A stretch of DNA of 63,070 nt, the filler included, from Collodictyon triciliatum (taxonomy: Eukaryota), in the NCBI GenBank assembly GCA_043381765.1. It is 4 parts of 4 records of this genome, joined end to end, with 100 filler letters (N's around TTAATTAATTAA, not from the genome) between each part and the next. Parts side by side here need not be neighbours in the genome. Positions count along the whole stretch, not along the records: positions 1 to 14,936 come from JBHJMP010001752.1; 3 more parts are not named here. One strand, 5' to 3'. Shown here one piece after another: positions 6,370 through 60,500 of this stretch; position 1 is the stretch's first letter, and each line of letters starts with the position of its first letter. The notes beneath the pieces are model-generated. The model ran no database searches and was not told the DNA's origin. It saw only the letters and a program-made list of their open reading frames with translations. Both the position numbers and the translations under genes were made by a program.

Positions 6370-8289
6370 ATGACCACCGCAACAGAGCTGATTTCTGGCG
6401 TGCTTGCGCCCCAATTTCGCGACATGACTGAGGGTGATGTTCTCCACGCCTCTGGTGAGCGCACAGTGGAGGATGTTAAAGTTCTTGAGATACGGGGGGG
6501 CTACTTCAAGTCGGTCTCTCCTCTGCGCCCCTGTGCGAGACTCCAAGTATTTCTTTGTTCATAAGCACATATTGAAATACGTTTCTCTTTCTCTTTCTCT
6601 CTCTTTTCTTTTTCTTTTTCTTTTTCTTTTTCTTTTTCTTTTTCTTTTTCTTTTTCTTTTTCTTTTTCTTTTTCTTCCTTTTCTCTCTTTTCTTTTCTTT
6701 TCTTTTCTTTTCTTTTCTTTTCTTTTCTTTTCTTTTCTTTTTCTTAGTATTTCTTTCTCTTTTTCTTTTCTATTTTCTTTTCTCTTTCTCTTTTTCTTTC
6801 TCTTTCTCTTTCTCTTTCTCTTTCTCTTTCTCTTTCTCTTTCTCTTTTTCTTTTTCTTTTCTTTCTATATCTACTGTGTATTTCTATATTTCTATTAGTA
6901 TTTCTACTTCTACTTCTACTTCTACTTCTACTTCTACTTCTACTTCTACTTCTACATTTGCCTCTAACCTATGTTTCTATGAAGGTTTGTATCCTAAGTG
7001 GTGGTTCGGTCTTTCGGCTGGATGGTATGCTTTCGTGTTGGCGGTTGAGAAAGCTAGATATATCAAACAACAGGATCGACCGTCTCCCAGAAAGGACAAA
7101 CTTTTGGGAGTGCCTTCCATTTCTGCAGGTTTTTTTGCTCACACCATTCTCATAACAATATATGATTCGTTTGGTTGAGTCGCATCTGCTCATGACATCT
7201 TTGATTTAGATTATCTTCCTTCATGACAACCGAATCTCGTCACTTAAAAACCTAGAGCATCTCGTATGAATAAATTGAATTATGTATTTTGTACAGGAAT
7301 TTCAAACGAACAATCTCAGAGATATCATCATTCTTTTCAACCATTTGTTAAACTTTACTTTATGATTTATCCGGTTATTTATTTGGATTTCCCTTCAATT
7401 TCCTTTCCCTATTTTAAATCGATTAGAAACTTGCACCGTCACTAGTAGCGCTTACTCTACGGGACAATCCTGTGTCCCTCCAACGAAACTTTCGATCTTT
7501 CATTGTAAATTGCTTGCCCGGGCTGAAAGTCTTGGATGATTACGTTGTTGGAGATGAAGAAGTGATTCAAGGTAGGTTGCATACTTTGGTCTCATTTCAT
7601 AAGTAACCAGATTAGATGGGGGAGGGTTATTATTTTGTAATATTTAGCCGCTTCCTAAAATAATTCATATTTATATTCTTTTTAAAAAATGCTTTAAAAA
7701 ACTCCCTCCAAACATGGCAGGTGGCAATTTTTCGTATTCCAAAAAATACCGAGCTTTAGATGATTATATGAAAGTAAGTTCATTAGAGTCATTATATAAT
7801 TTTCCTCTGTTTATAATGCTCATACATCTAATATATGCTATTAAATTACAGGTCAATTATGGAACACTGCCTCTCAAAGCTTCTCCTATCCAGCACGTCG
7901 GCCTTATAGACGCTTTGATGAGGCAAATCAAACAAATTGTTAGAGAACATAGTCCAATCCTAACCATTCAAGTAATTCATCAAATAATACCTTGAAATCA
8001 TGTTGATTTTTCCCCACCTTTATTCGATTCAAAATAAAATCGTATTTGATGACGAAATTAAATGGGTTCTCTATGTTCAATATTTGAGAGTTTGCTTTGA
8101 ATCGAATAAAGGAAAAAAATATTTGAGAGTTTGATTGAATATCTTGTTACTCCCAATTTAGAGAGTGTTTCGTGGGCATATAGTCCGTGAATATGTTCGG
8201 AAGCTAAGAGCTTATCTTAGTTATCACGCAGCAAATATACAGAAGTTATGGAGAGGTTACAAAGGGAGGAGGTACTTTTAGTTCGTGAT

Positions 8290-8330
<41 letters not shown>

Positions 8331-11300
8331 TCTCTCTCTCTCTCTCTCTCTTTCCTTCTTTTTTATTTTTATATTTATATTTATTTTTATTCTTATTCCT
8401 ATTCTTGAAGACCTTTTAACATACGGAAAAATATGCAGGTACGCCAAGTATGTCAGAATAAGAACGAATGCTGCAAAAAGAATCCAGAAGGCATTCAGAA
8501 GATTTTATCAAAGAAATATTCGGATGAGAGAGTACATTCTATATTAATACTATTGCTGGATGTAATATTTTTAAGTTTGTCGCTAGTCCCTAGTTTTATG
8601 CATGATTTCTAAATTTTGATAAGCTTATATCTTTTTTCAGCGCTGCACTTAAAATCCAAAACGCCTGGAGAGATATGATATACCGTAGACAAAACATAGA
8701 TGATACATTCACTCTTCAAGGAGGCGTAATATATTAATATATTGATACGTTTATTTCTCATTCCTGTGTTACTCCAATTTTCGTGAAGCTAATACACTAC
8801 TCCATCACAGGCCATTCTGTTTTTCGAAAAAGATCTCCAAATCATCAAACATATCATCAAAGTTGCGTATAAGATCGAACGTGGCACATATTCTGGTAAC
8901 TTACATCGAAATAATACATTATCCTCACAGACTGTTTTAATTTTTATTTTAACCACTTATTATTTAGAGGAGGAAATCAAGCGCACTGACATCAAGCTAT
9001 TGAGAAACAACGAAAAAACACAATCATATATGTGGAATCGAGATAACCGACTATTTGGTAAATGTTAATCCCTTAAATTTTGTCTACAATTTAAGGAAAA
9101 TATGCACTTTTTTTTAAAAAAAATATATGTATATATATATATGTAAGGAATGGAAGCACCTGCTCATCCTTTTCCGAAATTTAACAGGGATTGTGGCCCA
9201 AAAGCAAATATCTCGGTTTCTTCCACACACATATAGGAAGTTATGTAAGCTCAGAGTTACGAAGCCAGATGATAGGAGAAAAGCCGTATTCTCTGACGAG
9301 ATTCCTATTCGTCGTCCTCGAACTTACACAAAGTATTATCATGTTATGAATTTAAATGATATGATGCTTCACTGATGTGACTATCATCCCCTTTTTTCTT
9401 CTTATTGATTAAATCGTTTTTTTTTTTAAAAAAAAAAGCGAGTCAATAGTGATGAACTGGGTGAATGGATTGAAGGAGAATTTGAAATCAAATGCTGTGG
9501 CGATGGACAACACCCACGTCTATCTTTACCAATGGTCATGCCAGAAGTTTGGAGTCCCCTCTAGAGTTCTTTCGTACATACTCATGTATAACCGAAACCA
9601 CTTAGGAGAGCAGTATTTAGATCCAAAGTTAGTGATATCAATCATATTATACCTTAATATTGAATTTAATCTAAAAATGCCCTCTTTTATGAATTTTTTT
9701 TCCCCCACCACATATTTAAATCCTTTTCATTTTCTAATATTAATTCTAGACTGAGTCATCATGGTCGAATCACAGTACTGCGAAGGGAACACGTACATGA
9801 AGTGATGGCAGCTGTAATCCTCCAATCAGTCTGGAGAGCGAAACATGTTTTAATGAGGTTTGCTTAGAATATGCGAATGAAGCGTTTAGGGAACATTTTT
9901 CAATAACATCATACCTGCATAGGATGGGTCCATCTTCATATGTAACTGCAGTAAAAACACGGGCAGTTTTGCGCATCCAAAGATGGTGGCGAAGCACTAC
10001 GTCTCACTGCTACCTTGAATTGCTAAGAAACCTGAAGAAAATTCTGAGTCAGATGTGTGACACTGAAGTATGTATAGCTAACCTGAAACCTTGAGTATTG
10101 AATTGCCTCTGCAAAAGCCGACATTCTTTTCACTTATCCACCAATAACACAACATAAATAGCTTATCATTGAAGAACCCACTTGGAATTATTTAAAGGTC
10201 CTATCACAGCAAAAAAGCATCATGAGAAGCTATGCTTTTGCTAAGGAAACTCAAGTCAAGTAAGAAAGAACGAATTGTTTTTAATATTAATGTAACGTCT
10301 TTAATAAATCATACTGTTCCTTTATCATATAGAATTTACAAACTAAGTCAATAAATTGTTCCATATCCTTGACAGATTTATCATTCATCCATTAACAAAG
10401 CGAGTGGAACTGCATCCATCTGCGAAATCACTGCTACCTCATTATCTCTTAAAGCCATTTTTCTTTTACAAAGGACGACTAGCCAGTTTGTCTTCTTTTT
10501 TCTTCTTCATTCCATTATTATTTCTCTCAACCTTTTTCCCATACTATTAATATATTATAGCAATCAAAGAGAGAATTTATATAATATAACATCTTCGGTC
10601 TTTAATCATTTTTTACGTTAATTTTTCTTTTATGCAATTCTCTCTTTTTTTTTTTTTCCTGCAGCTGCTACACTCGGGAATCCATATCAACTTTTAACTG
10701 ACGGTGTAGAGGTCTACTCAAGAGCTCTATCCACAGTGGAATTGGAAGCCAATGCTGTAGGGAGCTCTCAACAAGTGAATCATTCTCGAAGGATGTCACT
10801 CGTACGAAATTTTATGTTTTTTCAGCACGACAAAAAGCTTGGTCCGTCTGTCAAGCTACCCCCAATTAACTCTGAAGAGGGTCAACAACCCCCCAGCACC
10901 CAACATTCTCGTGTACGCGGAAAGCTGACCAATAGCCTTCAAATGTCAAATTCTTTGTCTCAAGGAACGAATGAAATCGTGATACGGTTTCCAGATAGAC
11001 GAGAGGCCAAATTGCGCAGAATGTTGTTAGCTGCAATCACTTTCTCTATTAGGCCATACATTCCTGGGGCTCATGTAGAGCATGCATCAGGTAATCGGCC
11101 GCCATACTCCTTCATCACATTGAGGTTACTTCGTGTTCAACAAGAGACAGACGCTGCCATTCGGATTCAGGCAGCTTGGAGAGGATGTGTGGTCCGTTCT
11201 CAAATCAAGCGGATGAAGTCAGGTAAATTGGGCCCGACTCTTGGGGTTCCAAAAACTATCCAGGATTTGGAAAGTCGTATAGAAGATTTGTATTATGAGA

Positions 11301-14300
11301 CGATGAAGTCTGACGCGCATCAGAGGCGATTACCAAAGAGACCCTCTTCTGCCAACCAAAGCACTAAACGAGCTGAAACACCTGATATTCGACCTCATAG
11401 CCGTGCGAGTACATCTCTTGGATTTTTTGAAGATTCTGCTCAGAAATTTTCAAACTCAATTTCCTCTACAAGGGATGAAAAGAATTTATCTATTTACATG
11501 GACTCTTCGTTGAATGTGTCCACCCAAGGATCTCTTTCAAGGCCAGAGTCACGAATAAGTCAGAGCAACCAGAAAACAGACTCCTCTGCAAGGCCATTTA
11601 CAAGTCCAATAACCTCCAATATGCAATCAATGAATGATAGTACTAAGCTTCAAAAAACCCAAAACCAACCAACATTTGAACCTAGCCCAGAGGAATTAGC
11701 TATATCGATTCTCCATTCCTCACAACACCAAACAGATCCCAAAATAACTCTTGAAAATCTCCGACAGAGGATGATGACCATAGATCAGAGACTAAGCGAG
11801 CAGGATTCTTTACAGCCTCCTTATTCTGTTGTTTCAATGGATCGTTCTGGGATCGAACGAAGATTAATGAAAATTGCAATGGTAGTTTATCATATTCTAG
11901 CATGTCCGCCATATATATGAGTCTTCATCGCCCATTTTTTTCACCCCTTGTATGGCTTTATACTCTTGCACTTTGGACCGAATAAAGGAAATAAGTATTT
12001 TGTTTTATTTTGTTTTGTTTACATGAATTAGAAGACTCGGATAATCATAGCTGACTTTTTTTTTTTTTTTTTTGCAGCTGAATGATTACATACAGGAACA
12101 AGCAGATTCCTTGGTAGTAACTAGTGTCGAACCTTCAAAAGTCACTCAACCACCCGATAACGAAGAGGTTTAACTCTTCACCATTCTCCTTTTTCCTTCT
12201 TTTCCTTCTTTTCCTTCTTTTCCTTCTTTTTCTTCTTTTTCTTCTTTTTCTTCTTTTTCTTCTTTTTCTCATTTTCTCGTTTTCTATCTTGATGTTACTC
12301 TTATTTTTTGTGTTTTTTTCCATTAAAATACATAAATGTAATTTATCATATATTCTATATAGACCGCGATTCAGCTGTAAATTTTGTGATGAAAGAAACT
12401 TTTAGGAATTTTCAAAGAAATAATCGAATCAAGATTTAACTTAGCATTTATTAATGGGGTGTGTAATGACTCTACATAGATCATGCTGAGGAAGGAAATT
12501 GCACTTGTTTTGAAAGAGAAATTGTTTGAAATTCAAGAGGAGCTTAAAGAGCAAGAAAGGGAACAGCGAGAAGAAGTACTAAAGGATATATTTGTTGCTA
12601 TGTATAAAACAAGCTAACGAGGTAATTATATAATAGAAAGCTGAGAAAGGAAAGCAGCACTTAAAAGATGCAAATGCCTCCAGAAATCGAATGATGGCCA
12701 TAGCTCAAAGCTTGCGTGATGCAAAGTACCTGCGCAGTGTATGATACAACTGAAATTCGCTAATTCTTATTTTTAGTTTAAATTTGAAGCAAATATAATA
12801 CGGAATTTTTATTGCATCATTTTAGATCAAAACGCCATCCGACGTAAATAGGCCCAAAGAAAATGATTTACAGGATAAACTTGCCCGGGTTTGTTCTATT
12901 TTCCACGATAAATTATGTCCATTCGACCATGATGAAGTGCTCACTTCAATTTTTGCTTTATTTATGCCAACTATTACTTGTTCCTATGTCGTTTTTCTTT
13001 TCCGTTCTCCTCCTTTAAGGTTGCTCGAATAAGGGATGAGCAAAAACAAGCTCGAGAGGCATTGATGCAGTTTTTTGAATCCACAAGATCAGAAGCTCAC
13101 ATACAAGGACAAATTGATAAAATATCCACACAAGAGGCTATTGATATGCATAATTTGAAAGAGCTGCGCAAGGTATTATCTAATCCATATATGATTTTTT
13201 TTTGTACTATACTTTATCGATTCAGCCTTATACATAAAATTTAAATATATGTTTTCATTAATTTTTTCTTCTGCAAACCAAAATCTCAACAGATTGGTTC
13301 CGTTCACGAGCAAAAGAAAAAAGTCAAAAATAAGAAGGAAAGGATTCAGGATGACATTTCATTTTCCAAGACATTTGTTTCTCAGCAGAATATGGTATCG
13401 AGGCATCTACGAATGAGTGGTTTGATATACTTTTTTAAAATACCGCAATAATCAGACAATAATTTTCAAAGTGAATACCTTATTTTCTTGCCATAGTATT
13501 TTCATTTGATGGTTTACGAATTAGAAACATTCCTAATGGTTTTGTTCTTTGATTGAACTGGCGGTATTGACTTTTTAAATCAATATATAGAGTTTGCTTC
13601 TAAAGTAGAGCATGACCGGCATCGCCAATTATCCCATTATCAAACGCTAAAAAGCAAAGAAAAGACAAGAAAACAAGAACACGATAAACTTCTCCAGCAA
13701 GCCTTGGAAAAAAGGCGGTCAGATGTTGCCGCAGTCAATAAGTTTATGGAGGATAAGTTACTTGAAGAAGAACAGCGAAAGGTCATACACACTAATATTG
13801 ATAATAATCATAAACAAATTTCCGTACAAATTGCATTATTATCACCTCATTTATTATTTCATCATGGCGTGTAGTTTAGATGGAGAATATGATTCATAGA
13901 TCTAACAAAAGATATAGCGAAATATTATATCATGCCTTATTCATTTTCAGTTGTATGTTCCTCTGAATAGATCGACGAATTGAATGAAAAAATTCGATTT
14001 CGAGAAGAGAATGAAAAGAAGCGCTCACAGTTTTGTTCTATCGGACCGAATGAATTTGAGTTTGCGCCGTTGGATAACTTAATGACCCCACGCAGATTAG
14101 CCAATTTGAAATCAATTACACAAGGGCCTCTACTGAAGATTTCGCATTCAGACCTTCGAAGGAATGAGCTAAATGCCCCCAGCGAGCACCCCACAGAGGC
14201 ATCTCGTCCAGGGAGTGGGGAGAGAGGGACCGATGAAAGACCCTCTGGTGTTTTCACAGTGATTGATGCCTCTCGAGGAAAGCACAAAAGTGAATGGCTA

Positions 14301-49353: not shown

Positions 49354-50323
49354 TCATGTCTTGCGACGAGTGAGATGGTCGTAAATCACAACTTGGACGT
49401 ATTCGTGCGTGCGAATCTCTACACGCCGAGTGTTGTCGCCTGGGTTTTCCTATGCATCAAAATCACAATCACGATCATGATCATTCAAAAAAAAAAAAAA
49501 AAGGTTTAGTGACATGCGTCTCAAGAACGAAACACACCTTTGGATCCACGTTGATGATCTTTCGATCGCGCTTGTTTTTGAACAAAAGGCCGCTTTCGTT
49601 GTCTGTCATGACCTGGAAGTTTGGTGTGGAGTTTGAGGTGGATGTTTGCGTCTCCCAGTTGTAGAAGCTCAGATCGCTTGGCTTGGGGAGAATCTTGCGC
49701 TTGTGCTCAAAGTACGGCTCAAAGTTTTCTGTCTTGAGGCGATGCGCATAGTCGATGTATCCGCTGATCTCCTGGCCTTTTGCGTTGTGATCGCGGATGA
49801 AGATGATCGACTGGTGAGCAGATCAGGTCAGGTCAGGTCAGGTTCACAATGAAAACAATCAGTAAAAAAAAAAAAAAAAGTAAAAAGTATTGTCGACAAA
49901 ATGGTATCATTAAATCAGTAGAAAAAAAACTACATAAAAAAAACAAGAATGAAAAGGTAAGTCGTCTCAGTGTACCGTGAGTTTTCCTGAGCGGACCATA
50001 TCCTCCCGATCGGCCAGGGCCTTGAGAAAGGGGAACTCGTCGAGATTCTTGTTTTCGGAGGCAAGCTTCTTGTTTTCACGACGAAGCTTGCTGAGACGGG
50101 CTTCTTCGGCTGCCTTCTTCTGGGCCTCAAACTCCTCGCGCTTCAGCGTTTCGCCGCTCCCACGATAGCCCAGCTCCACAAGCTGGCGTGCAAGATCCTC
50201 GTCCTCCAAGTAGTAGAGATCGGTCGGGGAGATTTGGGAGTCGAGATACTCCTCATAGGTGGCAAACTCCAAGGCCACGCTTTCTGCTCCTGTTTGGAGG
50301 TCGGGATTGTCTTCGTCGGCCAT
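49354..50323 (-). CDS. CFAP299: Cilia- and flagella-associated protein 299 (C4orf22/DUF4464)
   Basis: Three exons: [36 protein letters not shown]...[30 protein letters not shown]...[27 protein letters not shown]...YDHLTRRKT*. Confidence 0.96.
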
Positions 50324-50932
50324 TGGAATATTTGATGGCGCAGCTGCTTTGGCGAGGTTTGCAGAGTCTCTGCTTGGTTCTGGTCTTCTGATTTGTGTTC
50401 TTTCCGTCTGCTTTGTCGCGGTCGCGTCTGTTTCTTGGTGTGTTGATTTGATTGACGGTTATGATCGCTGCGGATGACGGCCATTTTCGGTTGGGAAATC
50501 CGTTGAAAATTCCATATGTGGATATTATGTTTATTAAGATAAACATCGTTCGTTTGTGGCTTGCAGACTTTCGCACTGCTTAAAACGTGGAGTGCATATA
50601 TGCCTGGATGATTGAGAGGCCGACATACTGCTGAAATCACGGGATGCCGTGATGGGGCTTGGTAACGACATCCAAGAGATTCAGATTTCTGGAGGTGCCT
50701 TTAGTATGTTCGGATTAGCTTCATTTCCCTCGTTTGGATAAGCGAGATGTAACACTGATGGAAAAAACTAATGGGATAAAATAGTACAAAAATCGCAAAA
50801 ACTTTAAAAATTAACAACATCAACAACAGCAATATAAAACAACAATAAAAAACAGCAAAAAAACAGCAATAAAAAACAGCAATAAAAAACAGCAATAAAA
50901 AACAGCAATAAAACAACAACAACAACAACAAC

Positions 50933-51500: not shown

Positions 51501-52268
51501 TTATTTTCGCGAGAGTGTAGAGCGGGAAATACGTTCCAGTTGCTGGATAAGCTCTTGGATCTAAGAGTGTAATGCTCGCTTAACAATTACCAGTTCAAGT
51601 AAGGAAAGAATTGGATGGATGAACATCTAACCCGAATATCTTTATGATTGATAATGATAATGATAATGATAATGGTAATTATAAAAAATTATCTTGCCCA
51701 AATCGAAAGCAATGATAATGTAAAATAATAAGGTATAAGTAAATTACCTCGTCAGTAGTTTCTGTTTGTCTGAAAAGCTGCAAAGATTTTTTTATCTACA
51801 TTTTACGAGAAAAAGAATGGCTACGTGAATGCGAAGTGATATCAAAACAAAACCATGCAGGGTCATACTATCGAATTTCTTTTTCTGAAAAGCGATGACA
51901 ATAACATACAATCTCATCCAGTCTAGATAGGCTTCGGGCAGGTTCAATTTGGTATAAGGCAATAGACGCAAGAAATAACTTCAGAGATGCTACTCTTACC
52001 TTTTGCACAAAAATATAAAGTGATTTAACTCTTTAATTAAGTTCATAATTGAAACGAAAAAAAAAGATTTTGTTTAACATCTGGGATCGCTGTTACCTCT
52101 CTATGAGAGTCTAGGCAAAGCTGAATCGAGCTGTCAATCACAAAATCACTCTTGAGTATCTGTACTTTAAACCGGCTAAAATGTTGATATATGAACTATA
52201 CATTGTTAAAATTAATTATTTTATCATTATTGCATAACCTCGCTGCACTTTGAATCGAATTAAGGAAA

Positions 52269-52364
<96 letters not shown>

Positions 52365-52385
52365 NNNNNNNNNNTTATAAAGGAA

Positions 52386-52476
<91 letters not shown>

Positions 52477-55097
52477 TTGTTATTATTATTGAAATGACTA
52501 TTTCAGTATTTCAGTTCACGTGAATTTTGGAGCTGACAAGTTTAATTAACCATCCGTTCCCAAATAATATTATTGGGTAATTCATGACAGATATGTAGAC
52601 TCAATCCGAATGAATTAGCTTACCTGCAAACACCCACACCTCACAAGTGGGTGCCCTTTCTCGTGAAGACTCACATTCAAAGATATTGGGATGTACTTCT
52701 TACCAAGAGAAATCATATACTAGTAAAAGATTTCATGGTGAGCGTATCAGTACAATTTCAGATGCGTATACTTTAAATTTTTTTTGATAAAAAGTAAATT
52801 AAAATCAATTTTTATTCATTTATCTACTGTTTTACCTCCAAAGGAACAGGTAACTGTAATATACGCAGCAAAACGTTTACAAATATTATTCGAAATTTGG
52901 TATCAATTAGTTGAATGCCATATTTTAATAAGCATTCATTAGTCCTTGAATCTTGAGTGTCAACTAAATGCTCTGACGAATTCATGTTTGAATGTGATAA
53001 GATTGCGTCTAGAATTTCTATTGTACAAATGTCGGTGGGTGGATCTTTTGAAGTTCTGAAAACGTTCGAAGTATCCACCATTGAATCCTGATCGATGAGT
53101 TTGTTTCTTTCGCAATGAACAATCATCAGACTAAAGGCATCGATAATTCCTGTCTGGGCTTTTTGTAGTTCTACAACCGCATGTTATGAGCAGGTTTATT
53201 TACAATGACGAATGTCCCTTTCTACGAAATTGTACATACAAACATTTTATTAACAGTGCACCTGAGTTTCGACCTTCATTCCTTATGGACGAAATGCGAA
53301 GTAATATATCAAGATGGGCTGACTTCAATGGTGACGCATTTTCCGTGTGCCATGCAAGGACGTTGCAAACGTAAAATACATATAATTTGCATGCCATGTA
53401 ATCTGACAAGTGCGAGACAATCAGAATTACAAATAAATGTTTCCCCTTACTTTGTAAAAAGACGTTGTGATTGTCTCAAATTTTCTTAATTCGTATTGCA
53501 TACCCTATTACATTCCAAAAATAAATAAATAATTAAACAACCTGATGTTTCGATTGAGTGAACAGCATATTGTCGCATAGCTTCATGATGAAATTCAAAA
53601 GGGAAACGAGACAGGACCTCGGCGGATACCCTCTTTATGTCGTCATGCTCTAATTGAGAGAGGCAGCTATAGAAAGTTGGTTCAGTCAATCATATGACTT
53701 GTAGGATGTAGAACTAGTCTTGTTAAAAATGGAAAGAAAGAAAAAAAAGAGACAAGAGAATAAAATCAGCTAGATAGGACATATTGAACAAACAAGAATA
53801 ATATATGTATACTAACAAGTTCATGAGGCGTTCAGAAACTCTTTTGCACAGAATCACACGGTCTTCAGAATCTTGAAACTTTGTGCTGTAAAATGCAGCT
53901 GGCATGGTTCTCAAGAGCAACAATGGGCTTAGTTTTTGAAAAATCGATTTCGATTGCCCTTCCTCTGAGGCATATGTGTGTCTAATTGATGTAAAAAATA
54001 AAAAAAAATAATCAAATAATTATCAGCACGTTACCCAGTGTTATTTTTTCCCCTTTATTCGATTCGTCTCCCAGTGTTATAATAAATGGTATTAATATTA
54101 CTTGTAAACCACTTTATGCCGTTCCAGCTCGTCATATACTGCCTGGAGTATTGTATTTGAAGTTCTGCTCATTGTAGTAGAAAGCGTACTGGCCATCTAT
54201 AAAATAATACAAAGAACCTTTCATTTCCCATTTCTGATGATTCTAATTGAACCTTAAACAGCTTATTGATTTTTGGTTTTTTAGAAAGAAAAAAGAGGAT
54301 ATTTTGAGCAGAATGAAAAACCTTAATTGCGTAGCTGTCATCAGGCGAACTAAACATGCGATGCGCGAGGGCATTTGATGCTTCAGCAAGTTCTCTATCA
54401 TTCAACTGTAATCCCAATTAAATAGCACTAATTGAATAATCATACTCTGAACATACCAGCTTTTTTATATCAATTTCAAATTTAACTATACAACATGGCC
54501 CACACTTTGTATTGAATATAGGGGGCCCATTTTAATTTCTTGAATTTGAAAGCAGAAGCATGATAATAAAAGATATTAAAAAAAAAAAGAGAGAGAGAGA
54601 GAGAAAAAAGAAATGAAAAAAGAAAAGAAAAGAGCAAAACATTAGTAAAAGATATCAAAGGTGACAAACAGTACGAAATAAAATGTTGCCTCTTTATGGA
54701 ACTACCTCTTTCAACCACATCAAACAAGTGGACAGTATTCTATCAATAGTCTCTGGAGAGACATGCTTCACAGATTTTTTGGTGCCTAATGTCAAAGTAT
54801 TGTGTAAACTTTTTTTTTTCCTTTATTCGAGAGTATTATGTAAACTTAACCATTCAGTGATATGGGGGCGGCAGTTATGCATAAGTTTCACCTTTGAACA
54901 CGTTACAACTTGAGAAATTCATCGGGGCGTCTATGTATGCTAGATTTCTAAGTACAGTAAACATTATAAAATAGTGTCATTTGAAACAGTTTTTCATATT
55001 ATTTATAAATGATATCTAAAATATCTTAGTATATTTATCTTCTGTAAGAAACCTTAAAGTGTCAACCATGGTCTTCATAATCAACCCACAATCATTC
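51501..55097 (-). CDS. Uncharacterised ARM/HEAT-like helical repeat protein (3' part; 5' part lies in or beyond the gap)
   Basis: Exons give IFQKLSPLLLLRTMP, EHDDIKRVSAEVLSRF, KAQTGIIDAFSLMI, FRIIFVNVL, VRVASLKLF and a last exon IQELIQQLERISRSTLSRK*. The motif series resembles my recollection of plant At3g57570-type ARM proteins. Confidence 0.65.
52232..52269 (+). mobile_element. Short retroposon-like 3'-end fragment, copy G, followed by (TTA)n
   Basis: GCATAACCTCGCTGCACTTTGAATCGAATTAAG matches copy A at 31 of 33 positions. Confidence 0.75.
54045..54069 (-). mobile_element. Short retroposon-like 3'-end fragment, copy I, with 11-bp TSD
   Basis: The reverse complement AGACGAATCGAATAAAGGGGAAAAA is flanked by CCCAGTGTTAT at 54034-54044 and 54070-54080. 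Confidence 0.75.
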
Positions 55098-55690: not shown

Positions 55691-55771
55691 TAAAGATAAA
55701 GATAAAGATAAAGATAAAGATAAAGATAAAGATAAAGATAAATATAAAGATCAGCAGAAACACATTTATAC

Positions 55772-57408
55772 CATTCAATTTGTTGTTGTAAAGGCTTATT
55801 TGCTCTAGAAATGGCGTTTCGAAATTTGGAATGGTTCCTATTGATTGATTTTAAGAGGGATATACAAAAAAAGAATATGGAATGAAATGTACCACTAAGT
55901 TGGTTATTATGAGCAACAAGGTCAACCAAAACTGGCATGTAGAAGTTTGGCAAGGTACCTTACGATAAATTCAAAAAATTAATTATTCAAGACTTTAAAA
56001 AATGGTAAATTATTTAATTCTTGACAACCGTCAATTTTGTTGTTATAGAGATGCAGTTTTTCCATCAAAGGCATATTGAAGTCAGGAATTTTTCCTAGTT
56101 AAATTTGGAAAGCTTTAAGAATTCCCATGATTTATATTTTTACTTTCCTCTTATATTATTCTAATTACTCTTTGAATCGAAAGGAAACAATATTATTCTA
56201 ATGACTAGTATTATCACCACAATTATTACCATTTAGCTTATTATCAAACAGTTTCAAGACCTTTATTTTAGTCATGTTCAAATTTGGTATAGTTCCTATT
56301 GATTTGATTCGGTTTAAATATTTATTTCAAGAATCAAACTATCCATTTATATGTAATTCTTCAAGAACACAACGATGTGTCACTGTCATACCACTAATTA
56401 AATTTCCACTTATATCCAGGGAGATCAGACTTTTCATTTCAAAGAAAGGTATTGTGCCTTCGAATAAATTTGAATCGCTAAATAAAAAGCAAAATATAGT
56501 ACATCTCATAATTTTAAAGAAGACGGATTGTAAATAAAATCAAGCAGCAACCATTCAGGACGTTCGATTTTAGGCATAGGTACTGAAGATAGGGCATTTC
56601 AAATTCTGGCATGTTACCTGAACAAAAGAAATATCTTCTTGAAATTGTATTTTTTTTTTTTTTAGAGAATATAAAATCAAGAAATTAGTTAAGATTTTAG
56701 CCAACCAAATAGTAAATTCATCCCCACATCCAGAACTTGCGTTAATGGCATACCAAAGTTGGGTACAGTCCCTGAATTCATTTAATTGATTTTTGAGATT
56801 CTATTGTTTAATTCAGCGGACAACTGAAAGACACATTTTCATTTTTGAAAAAACAACTAAACAGAACTAGATTTTTATCACAAACCAGTGAGGTTATTGT
56901 TTGACATATTGAAAATGTTCATAAATGGCATATCCAATAAGGGTATTGTCCCTAAAATTATCGATTAGAAAAATCAGAAATAGGATACTTACTCACTTTT
57001 CAATTTAAATGTTGTGAGAATTAGACATATATCTTTTGTTATTTTACATTTTTACCATTCAATTTGTTAAAGCTTAGATTTATCTTTTCCATGAAGGGTA
57101 AATCCAATATTGGAACAGTTCCTTACAAAAAAAATTAATTCAAAAATGGGGTAAAGCAACGAAGAAAGGACCTTATATCTTACCATGTACATTGTTATCG
57201 TGAAAGAACAGTTTTTCAACGAAATTCATGGAAGAAAACCTGGGTATGTATCCTATTTTTTTTTTGCAATAATTAGTATAAAATAGGTATTTTAATCGAA
57301 TAATTTGATATAAATAAACCATTCAGCAAATTTTCACTAAGGTCAATCTCTTGAATCATATTGAGACTCAGATCAGGTATTGCTCCTACAAAACAGTTGA
57401 ATTACACC

Positions 57409-57506
<98 letters not shown>

Positions 57507-60500
57507 TATAAAAATCACTTTCTCGAATCAGTAATAATTCAAATGATTCTGTAAATTTTTTTTATTAAATTTTAATCGTTATCGATGCATCGATTTCATA
57601 CCACTAAGTAGGTTGTTATTTAAGTACAGGAACGCAACTTTAGGAAGAGAAAGCTCATTTATTTGACCTTTTTTTGGATTTTAATAATTAGGAATCAAAA
57701 GAAATTTATGATAGACTTTGGGATACAAAATATGACCTAGAATTTGAATTGTGTTCATACCATTTATATTATTATGACTTAGATCAAACATTTCAGCTGA
57801 TGGCAGAGTAAGAAAAGGAATTTCCCCTGTGTTTTTTTCGATTTACAATTACAATTTTCATTTTTCTGATTTAATTTTAAAAGGCTAATATGATAAATTA
57901 TTTAATTAGCATTAATATCTTTGTTATGGTTATGAAAAAGAAAAATTAATAAAAAATAAAATGATAATGCTGATAATGCTGATAAAGTTGAAAGAATAAA
58001 AATATGAATAATATGAATAATCTTGCACAAATTGAAAGGAAGAATAAAAATGATAATGATAATAACCTCCAAGTCGATTATTGTTCATATTTAGAGCAAT
58101 CAACTTTGAAGCATCAAACACAGGAATAGTACCTAATAAACATGAGTTATAAATTAATCATGACTTAAATATTAAAATATTTCGTATTTTATAATGTACT
58201 TTGCTCAAAACAAACTACAGTTATGTAACCTGAAATATCATTTGTACTCAAATCCAGTTCGATTATCTCAGGAATATGTAAAGTGGGTATGAAACCTATG
58301 ATGAATAAACACCTCATAGTGAATTTTTATTCATTTACATATGAATTTGTATGAAAGTATAATTACCCTGTAAATTGTTACTTTTCAGAATCAGAGTCTG
58401 CATGATACCCAAGGACAAACTTGGAATAGTTCCTTAATAAAAAAAAATTTTTTTTAGTATATCTCAGATATTTTCAAAGCATAAGTTCAGTAAGATGGAT
58501 GTCATTTACCGTTGAATTGATTGTATCCTAAATCCGCTTCCCTTAAGTTCAATAAATTGATGAAGTCAATCATTCCTAATTCATTTAAGGTCAATACATA
58601 TAATTTTATACCCAAATTTCTTATCATAGTCTGGAAAGAAAATACACACCACTGAAAGAATTGTGCGAAGCATGCAATATTTTCAGATTTGGGTATTGCA
58701 ACTGATTAATGGAGCCTGTTATTTTAGCATTATCAAATTTAGTTCCATAAAATTGCTAAATTGATTCTTCAGTACCATTGCAATTTTTTTAATATACCAT
58801 GGAATTCATTCATCTCGATGCTAAGTTCCTCAAGAGTATAAATACTTAAATCAGATAGAGATCCTATTGACGCAGCATTGTTTTTTTTTAAAAAATTGAC
58901 AACTGATTTTTCTTATGAAATATGGCATTTTCATATAATATTTCATATAGCAATATGTAATCTTCGGCACCATCAAATTTGTTATCGTTCAAGTAAACAT
59001 GTGTCAGCTTCGGCATGTTAATTAAATTTACTTTCCCTAATAAAATTAACTCAAACTCTTTAATTTTATTTTTGATATTATTTTTACTAGAATTTTCCTT
59101 AGCTACTTTGTAAGAAAAATAAGTATAGTTTTGCAAACAAATATTTGTTATAAAAACCATCTAATTGATTTCCATCTAGGTATATCTCTTCCATATTAGG
59201 GCTGTTGAAGCTTGGAATACTGCCTATATTTGTCAACAGAGCATTGATTTTGTATTTTTTAACTACATGCCTGATTGCATACTTCTGATAGAAACGGACC
59301 GATTTCAAACTCTGTCTCGCACAAATTGAGAGGAGAGAAAAATAAAAAGACTTCTGATAATAATAATAAAAATAATGATACCCATAAAACGATTATTGCT
59401 AACTCTAAACAACACGATGCTCGGAAGACTTATTGTCTTGGGCATCATTCCTTTTATTACGTAAAAAGATAAATATATGTTAGTTCATGAAAATAGATTT
59501 TTCTATAGTATATTAAGATGTGTATTTCTGGGTTAGTAATGCGTCCTACCGTTTAATTGATTATTGCTGATATCAAGTTTTAATAGATTTTCGGTGTTTG
59601 AATTTGGAAAGCCACCTTTAAAATTAATTTAAAAAAATTTAATGTAATATATTGATAAAATTACATAAAAGGTAAGAGAATTGGACTTGGAAACTATACT
59701 ACAGCCTATTTTGATACAAATAATATTAGGGCCATAGAAATTTAATAGTAATACGAACCGGTGAATTCGTTGAAGCTAAAATCAATTTCTTTAATAGATG
59801 ATGTGCTGGGCATAATAATAGCACCTTTTTTAGTCGAACAGATATCGATTATTAGAATGTATAGATAATTCATGTTGATGAATAAAATATTATAAAATCA
59901 ATATGTTTAAAGGAAAGGTATAAAAGTGAATAGATTAAAAGGATCCAAAAGGTACCGCTTAGTTGGTTAAAACTGAAAATAAGAGACTCCAAATGAGGCA
60001 AGTTTATGTTGGGCATGTTCCCATAAAGATTGTTGGAGGAGAGACTCAGCCCAGTGACAGGGCATGTGTTTGATAGTATTTCATTAGGGGCACAATTTGA
60101 GCTGCATGTGATGCCATACCATGTGCATATGGAATAATTGGAAGCCCAATTATCTTTGCGATACCAACTGATTCCTTTAGTAAGCTCATATACATTCATA
60201 AGCTCCATCTTCTGATCGATAGGCTTCGGATCGAGTCTTGAATCAATTTTTCTACGACTACCAGCGTCTTTAACCATTTTTTCAGCTTTTATTTATTAAA
60301 TGTGTCAGAGTCGAAATATTTGTTGGTGACTTGAAAGAGAAATGTAAATAATTCATATTTTATTTCGGTTTTCTCGAATTATGAGTACACGTATATTACA
60401 ATACCTTGTTGAAGATAAATGGAGTTATCAGATTTTATAGATGTGTCATTATTAAGAAGCGAATAGTATGAAGTTGATGTAACGTTCGTTTCCTTATATT

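Follow-up and report, generated by a model that had tools for sequence, protein, structure and literature searches.

The closest described counterparts of the insertions considered here are those of the human L1 retrotransposon. L1 nicks its target at TT|AAAA and leaves target-site duplications (TSDs) of 7-20 nt (PMC7617806), TSD lengths in the L1 clade form a peak (PMC4245944), full-length copies are joined directly to the target at their 5' ends while truncated ones often show microhomology there (PMC4245944), and truncated copies often have short TSDs (PMC2912911). What causes the 5' truncation of LINEs is a long-standing question; recent structures propose a premature jump to the pre-nicked top strand, which early nicking of that strand permits (PMC7617806). 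The C-terminal segment of human ORF2p holds an RNA stem, with 20-25 nt threaded to the active site, and the strand 3' of this stem must be poly(A), mixed sequence having failed (PMC10830416). In Alu elements, 5' truncations coincide with stem-loops or SRP9/14 sites (PMC4666360), and the stringent LINEs and SINEs, such as zebrafish ZfL2, have a 3' tip common to families and a 3' stem-loop (PMC4176376).

In the genome of Collodictyon triciliatum (75.4 Mb in 14,576 contigs), a short recurrent motif is, judging by its sequence, the 3' tip of an L1-like LINE, hereafter family A, the body of which lies elsewhere in the genome. Truncated human L1s are typically hundreds of bases long; in family A, unlike in human L1, most bodies are shorter than 20 nt, half of them stop at one 2-nt step, the A-run has only about eight residues, a spacer of one to three G precedes it, and junction microhomology is not in excess. 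The likeness to human L1 (PMC7617806, PMC4245944, PMC2912911) comprises an ORF2 with APE endonuclease, reverse transcriptase (RT) and CCHC knuckle (the endonuclease being weakly seen in family A and clear in a sister family, B), a TT|A nick, an A-tail, a TSD near 15-17 bp and variable 5' truncation. With Alu, family A shares non-random truncation at a predicted RNA structure together with a normal TSD and tail; however, such ends are a minority in Alu (16%) and lie close to the 5' terminus of a SINE of 300 nt, whereas in family A they are the majority, arise in cis and lie 17 nt from the element's own 3' end. As in the stringent elements, a 3' tip is common to two families (A and a third one, A') and a 3' stem-loop is a candidate, but ZfL2 belongs to the L2 clade, while the short copies here are without a tRNA- or 5S-derived head and their stem is a weakly predicted one. 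No report of a LINE with a fixed tip of less than 20 nt as its main product was found in the literature searched, most subscription papers being outside its coverage. L1-type truncation itself is already known, and the sharp sub-20-nt stop seems to be the new part; new here are the genome-wide step, an unconditioned sample, an empty paralogous site, the family-B control and a stem-loop candidate.

Tip insertions in the window

The stretch of DNA analysed (the window, 63,070 nt) consists of four N-separated pieces of the C. triciliatum assembly (GCA_043381765.1). A sequence-only reading had listed seven copies of the tip, all of which are present at their positions, on two of the four pieces and on both strands, save that the copy starting at 212 reaches 275 and not 264. 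A 17-mer from the tip, with up to two mismatches allowed, matches five of the seven sites versus 0.08 expected from 100 shuffles. Two copies were outside that list, namely an eighth, shorter family-A copy and a family-B tip. The features are as follows.

8079-8094, + strand: left TSD of the focal insertion, 16 bp, exact repeat of 8118-8133
8095-8117, + strand: focal insertion of LINE family A, tip-only, made up of the final 17 nt of the 3' UTR, an additional G and an A tail
8118-8133, + strand: right TSD of the focal insertion, 16 bp, exact
8017-8033, - strand: tip of family A matching the 17-mer exactly, with an interrupted tail and without a clear TSD, in the predicted intron that also contains the 8095 copy
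212-275, - strand: longer 5'-truncated family-A copy, 56-nt body and A8, degenerate TSD, in the long-copy set (L031)
11944-11991, + strand: diverged family-A copy, body of about 44 nt, no clear TSD, predicted intron 11882-12077
52232-52269, + strand: family-A copy, 34-nt body, no clear TSD, continuing into an array of (TAT)n and a gap of N
54034-54080, - strand: tip insertion 54045-54069, of which 13 nt are templated, with G4, A5 and, at the 5' junction, 4 extra nt, between 11-bp TSDs (54070-54080 and 54034-54044)
54796-54847, - strand: eighth copy, 10-nt body and tail (54812-54831), 16-bp TSDs with 1 mismatch
56153-56206, + strand: tip insertion 56170-56189, its first base being the modal C, with a 3-nt internal deletion, between 17-bp TSDs (56153-56169 and 56190-56206) with 1 mismatch
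58022-58050, + strand: short tip from the 3' end of family B, the sister LINE

The focal insertion has a blunt 5' junction located at the modal stop (see below), and its tip is identical to the 3' end of a long copy, L058. The three TSDs of 16, 11 and 17 bp claimed from the sequence hold, as does the common start of two short copies, those at 8095 and 56170 both beginning at the same C. The claim that each copy carries the core and an A tail fits most copies; in the 56170 copy, three nucleotides of the core are missing and with them the AATAAA, and in the 8017 copy TGGGG interrupts the tail before the A run. The 54045-54069 copy differs from the 17-mer by three mismatches.

As to the intronic placement of the listed copies, five lie in predicted GT-AG introns and the other two look intronic by eye. 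Among sequencing runs, one contained 0.38 of the words searched for and five contained small shares, with no RNA run among those listed. The predicted intron at 7972-8161, with open flanking exons, contains both the 8017 and the 8095 copies; those at 11882-12077 and 53982-54101 (minus strand) surround the 11944 and 54045 copies, and the 52232 copy sits in a predicted minus-strand intron with open flanking exons. By eye, the 56170 copy lies between predicted leucine-rich-repeat-like exons and the 212 copy just upstream of the acceptor that precedes a predicted RING-like exon. The host genes in the window encode an IQ-motif protein (7500-12180, plus strand), a protein with a RING-like exon (1-195, minus), CFAP299/DUF4464 (49967-50458, minus) and a leucine-rich-repeat receptor-like protein (55700-60300, minus). 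The CFAP299-like gene marks the host as a flagellated eukaryote, its matches giving no closer placement. Long (TAT)n arrays and assembly gaps adjoin copies in the window (52270-52480) and elsewhere (L052, L054, L060); these microsatellites may have been seeded by the tails or TSDs.

The parent LINE and its relatives

The high copy number proposed for the motif is borne out by 2,028 exact 17-mers in the genome (control 0) and by 2,814 exact tip 13-mers (control 21); in a density check of 19 regions chosen by contig number, five tip words were present in 153,112 bases versus 5.7 expected. A longer tip pattern with 283 genome matches was used to walk 5' towards the parent. In long copies, the motif is preceded by a 3' UTR of about 105 nt and then by an ORF2 with a zinc knuckle and RT, so that of the earlier designation "SINE/LINE" the LINE part stands and the SINE part falls. 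Specifically, the open reading frame reached by this walk contains RVT_1 (PF00078, E 3.4e-17 in copy L081) and, at the C-terminal end of ORF2 in both families A and B, the zf-RVT zinc knuckle (PF13966). Within family A, RT and zinc knuckle were found in one copy and an APE-type endonuclease, weakly, in another, the broken copy L158 (PF03372, E 4e-4, below the Pfam cut-off). The zf-RVT and RVT_1 parts recur in the genome, with 101 and 141 scored matches, many of them broken by stop codons, and no intact full-length family-A element was among the copies fetched. Many long copies sit at contig ends or gaps and are therefore probably undercounted. When the C-terminal 423 residues of family A were modelled (pLDDT 79), the five top fold matches were all human L1 ORF2p, the matches being weak (E 0.014; none significant at 0.001). 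One of the family-A fragments (L158) is adjoined by an integrase-like frame of an LTR retrotransposon, recognized by eye (L158:2697-3701, minus strand).

The short copies are truncation products of an L1-type LINE, a grouping made by domain content, and not SINEs: they consist wholly of the LINE 3' end, with neither a Pol III head (tRNA, 5S or 7SL) nor a body distinct from the LINE. A tRNA-Glu(CTC) gene was seen at L051:2105-2176 (minus strand), with a 5'-truncated family-A copy about 20 nt downstream of it; targeting to tRNA genes was dismissed, a tRNA being present at one of the 15 long-copy loci scanned.

The sister family B, with 927 genome matches, has endonuclease and RT in one ORF2 frame (PF03372, E 1.9e-16). 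Among solved structures, which cover few clades, the best match of its ORF2 is human L1 ORF2p (E 7.7e-45, versus 1.7e-19 for R2); its C-terminal part, searched by sequence against the solved structures, gave no matches. In the RT tree, families A and B are sisters with a support of 100/100, their RTs being 79.7% identical; the tree contains no named clade references and its base is unresolved, so that the families may belong to either the L1 or the Tx1 subgroup. A third family, A' (94 genome matches; examples in L037, L123, L130, L218 and L229), has the last 15 nt alone in common with family A and is pyrimidine-rich upstream of them; no parent of A' was found. The A-rich tails act as targets for each other, and family-B tips are seen inside the tips or tails of families A or A', along with tandem B tips (L102, L123, L201, L096). 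In one LINE copy (L100/L112, G000:C1775), the 5' part resembles family A (about 84%) and the 3' part, which ends in a B tail, resembles family B (82%); this copy is possibly a recombinant or a third lineage.

Target sites and the stop at 17-18 nt

The proposed origin by target-primed reverse transcription (TPRT) is supported by the A-tail, the variable TSD, the T|A nick site and an empty paralogous site. Among the first 100 exact 17-mer matches, 69 had a TSD score of at least 10, as compared to 9 of 150 random sites. A stricter TSD test was passed by 64 of the 165 family-A copies examined; in these, the TSD is 15-19 bp long in 62 (mode 17), is preceded by T in 47 and starts with A in 61. Hence, the endonuclease site of family A is TT|A, and both this site and the TSD lengths fit those of L1. 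Of the short copies, only 45 of 99 have a strong TSD, the TSD caller being blind to short ones. A de novo scan yielded TSD-flanked inserts of A only and of 5-11-nt bodies; for instance, exact 17-bp duplications surround an A-only insert of 12 nt and a 5-nt body (L128:7520, L060:2564). When 138 flanks were tested for paralogues, eight had matches, of which L143 was partially and L108 fully informative: the tip in L108 lies inside a LINE body, and in 22 further distinct contexts the 16-mer is present as a single, uninterrupted copy. Thus tip counts exceed those of shuffles, TSDs are more frequent than at random sites, and a parent element is present along with an empty paralogous site; these are the three points on which the sequence-only reading had agreed to be judged.

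The 5' junctions (n=64) are blunt in 23 cases, show 1-4 nt of microhomology in 29 and carry 1-3 extra bases in 12. Microhomology of at least 1 nt, seen in 29 of 52, is not in excess of the 23.8 +/- 3.6 expected (P 0.09), and this chance level speaks against a stop driven by microhomology. A bias towards frame-preserving insert lengths was likewise rejected, the classes modulo 3 (22, 17 and 25 of 64) being unbiased.

That the insertions are mostly tip-only is confirmed by 71 of the first 100 exact 17-mer matches, which extend at most 5 nt past the 17-mer. The accumulation of 5' ends at a single step of 2 nt was not part of the earlier reading. The counts of exact 13-mers, ordered by their 5' reach into the UTR, are 2,814 at 9 nt, 2,391 at 17 nt, 979 at 19 nt, 831 at 20 nt and 628 at 27 nt (controls 1-21), with a per-base survival between successive reaches of 0.98, 0.64, 0.85 and 0.96; the drop from 17 to 19 nt is 59%. 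In a sample that avoids conditioning on the 17-mer, comprising the first 73 of the 2,814 tip matches (74 rows, one duplicate removed), 5' ends lie at 9-12 nt in 10 copies, at 14 nt in one, at 15-18 nt in 42, at 19-40 nt in 15 and beyond in five, so that the stop rate at 15-18 nt is 42/198 steps versus 26/678 elsewhere (P 4e-13). About half of the family-A copies end 17-18 nt into the UTR. The step is not produced by A', which has only 94 matches, most of them missing the 17-nt word, and to which three of the 42 modal-stop rows seem to belong. Very probably, the insertions are LINE tips whose stop at 17-18 nt is particular to the family, an ordinary mechanism ending unusually early and precisely.

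A defined transcript would equally be expected to yield a common 5' start, as would be the case if an independent 18-nt mini-SINE from one or few master loci were mobilised in trans. This we regard as very improbable: the sequence is identical to the LINE end, the starts scatter over 15-18 nt, the tail G counts are alike in short (32:12:1) and long (9:2:2) copies, and 55 short copies without a strong TSD have no common upstream sequence, an observation that also dismisses chimeras with other RNAs at -17. In addition, 17 nt is too short for an internal Pol III promoter.

Family B provides the control. In 28 TSD-flanked rows (one a tandem artefact, most picked by a word needing 14 nt), its bodies range from 5 to 117 nt with a median of about 40 nt and at most three at any one length. 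Being short but without a step, family B indicates that shortness is common to both families and that the sharp stop is specific to family A. Two close LINE families that differ in their stop within one host thus offer a natural controlled comparison, which points to the RNA or its processing rather than to the host or to the geometry of the enzyme. If copying aborted, whatever the sequence, once the cDNA had reached a fixed length of about 25 nt dictated by how the TPRT complex is built, this would account for the very short copies in both families and for the total insert of 23-27 nt in 34 of 45 short copies; yet body and tail length show no trade-off (rho -0.11, P 0.46), body ends are more sharply defined than total lengths, and family-B bodies are widely spread, all of which makes such an abort improbable. 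We attach a similarly small weight to ordinary truncation combined with selection against long inserts and with loss of long copies in short-read assembly. Long copies are indeed often at contig edges or gaps, and selection against long L1s is documented (PMC5381506), but a 17-nt and a 19-nt body should be indistinguishable to either force, in spite of the observed fall between them. Either force may add to the general shortness in both families. The fixed-length abort, the mini-SINE and selection or assembly loss fit worse than the two explanations that follow.

Candidate causes of the stop

Taken together, the Alu ends at stem-loops, the grip of ORF2p on a stem with 20-25 nt threaded, and the early top-strand nick make stalling at the foot of a stem-loop our best guess, a tentative one to which we give slightly less than an even chance. 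Family-A insertions are 5'-truncated TPRT products of an L1-like LINE, with a second nick about 17 bp away giving rise to the TSD. On the stalling view, RT would copy about 25 nt at the RNA 3' end and run up against a stem-loop spanning -38 to -17, which the C-terminal domain of ORF2p itself might hold in place; at the foot of this stem, RT would often jump to the already nicked top strand, and the junction would be sealed without microhomology. The stem-loop is weakly predicted, with mean pair probabilities of 0.38-0.55 in 53 long copies; at -20, where A and G are both common, the opposite base is U in either case (35 U-A, 23 U-G), the pair being kept in 58 of 61, and the median distance from the stem foot to the 3' end of the insert is 24-26 nt. 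Against the stem, its predicted energy of -4 kcal/mol (z -0.17) is no better than that of shuffles, and the predictions often place the tip itself in pairs with pyrimidines further upstream (probability 0.5-0.9 for -1 to -9); no compensatory double change was found in the stem. Moreover, human L1 needs poly(A) 3' of the stem, whereas in family A two thirds of that stretch is mixed sequence, and the truncation points of family B are not clearly at the feet of its own predicted stems. A terminal mini-hairpin pairing -17 with -1 was rejected as a cause (pair probability 0.06, z 0.29).

Alternatively, the template could be shortened beforehand, the mRNA being cut or trimmed to about -17/-18 and RT running off an RNA of 25-27 nt; either a nuclease would cut at the stem foot or 5'-3' decay would be stopped by bound ORF2p. 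The blunt junctions (23/64), those with 1-3 extra nucleotides (12/64), the full-size TSDs and the chance-level microhomology would all suit such run-off, blunt junctions with full-size TSDs resembling completed insertions (PMC4245944; PMC2912911), and the 15 nt in common with A' suggest that the tip is a constrained unit. However, the ends form a continuum around the peak (10/73 at 9-12 nt, 15/73 at 19-40 nt), and no fixed footprint is seen in family B, the RT of which is closely similar. We consider this route unlikely, though the main rival to stalling.

To return to stalling at the stem foot, its extension, which we think less likely than not, is that the grip of ORF2p on a 3'-UTR stem-loop might set both the start of priming, and with it the short uniform tail, and the commonest point of abort. 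If so, some 1,400 copies in the genome, sealed without microhomology, would be in-vivo records of TPRT caught at the passage from initiation to elongation. Real retro-insertions shorter than 30 nt can number in the thousands, and a 25-nt scar with a 17-bp duplication as the main product of a LINE would, if true, be a hidden source of small intronic insertions. Perfect, introner-like creation of introns by antisense copies, for which the TSD must end in AC or GC, was rejected (0/14). The antisense family-A tip is a T-rich polypyrimidine run that ends in AG exactly at the modal stop (e.g. 8017-8033 and 56170-56189), so that antisense tips could, judging from this arrangement, serve as splice acceptors.
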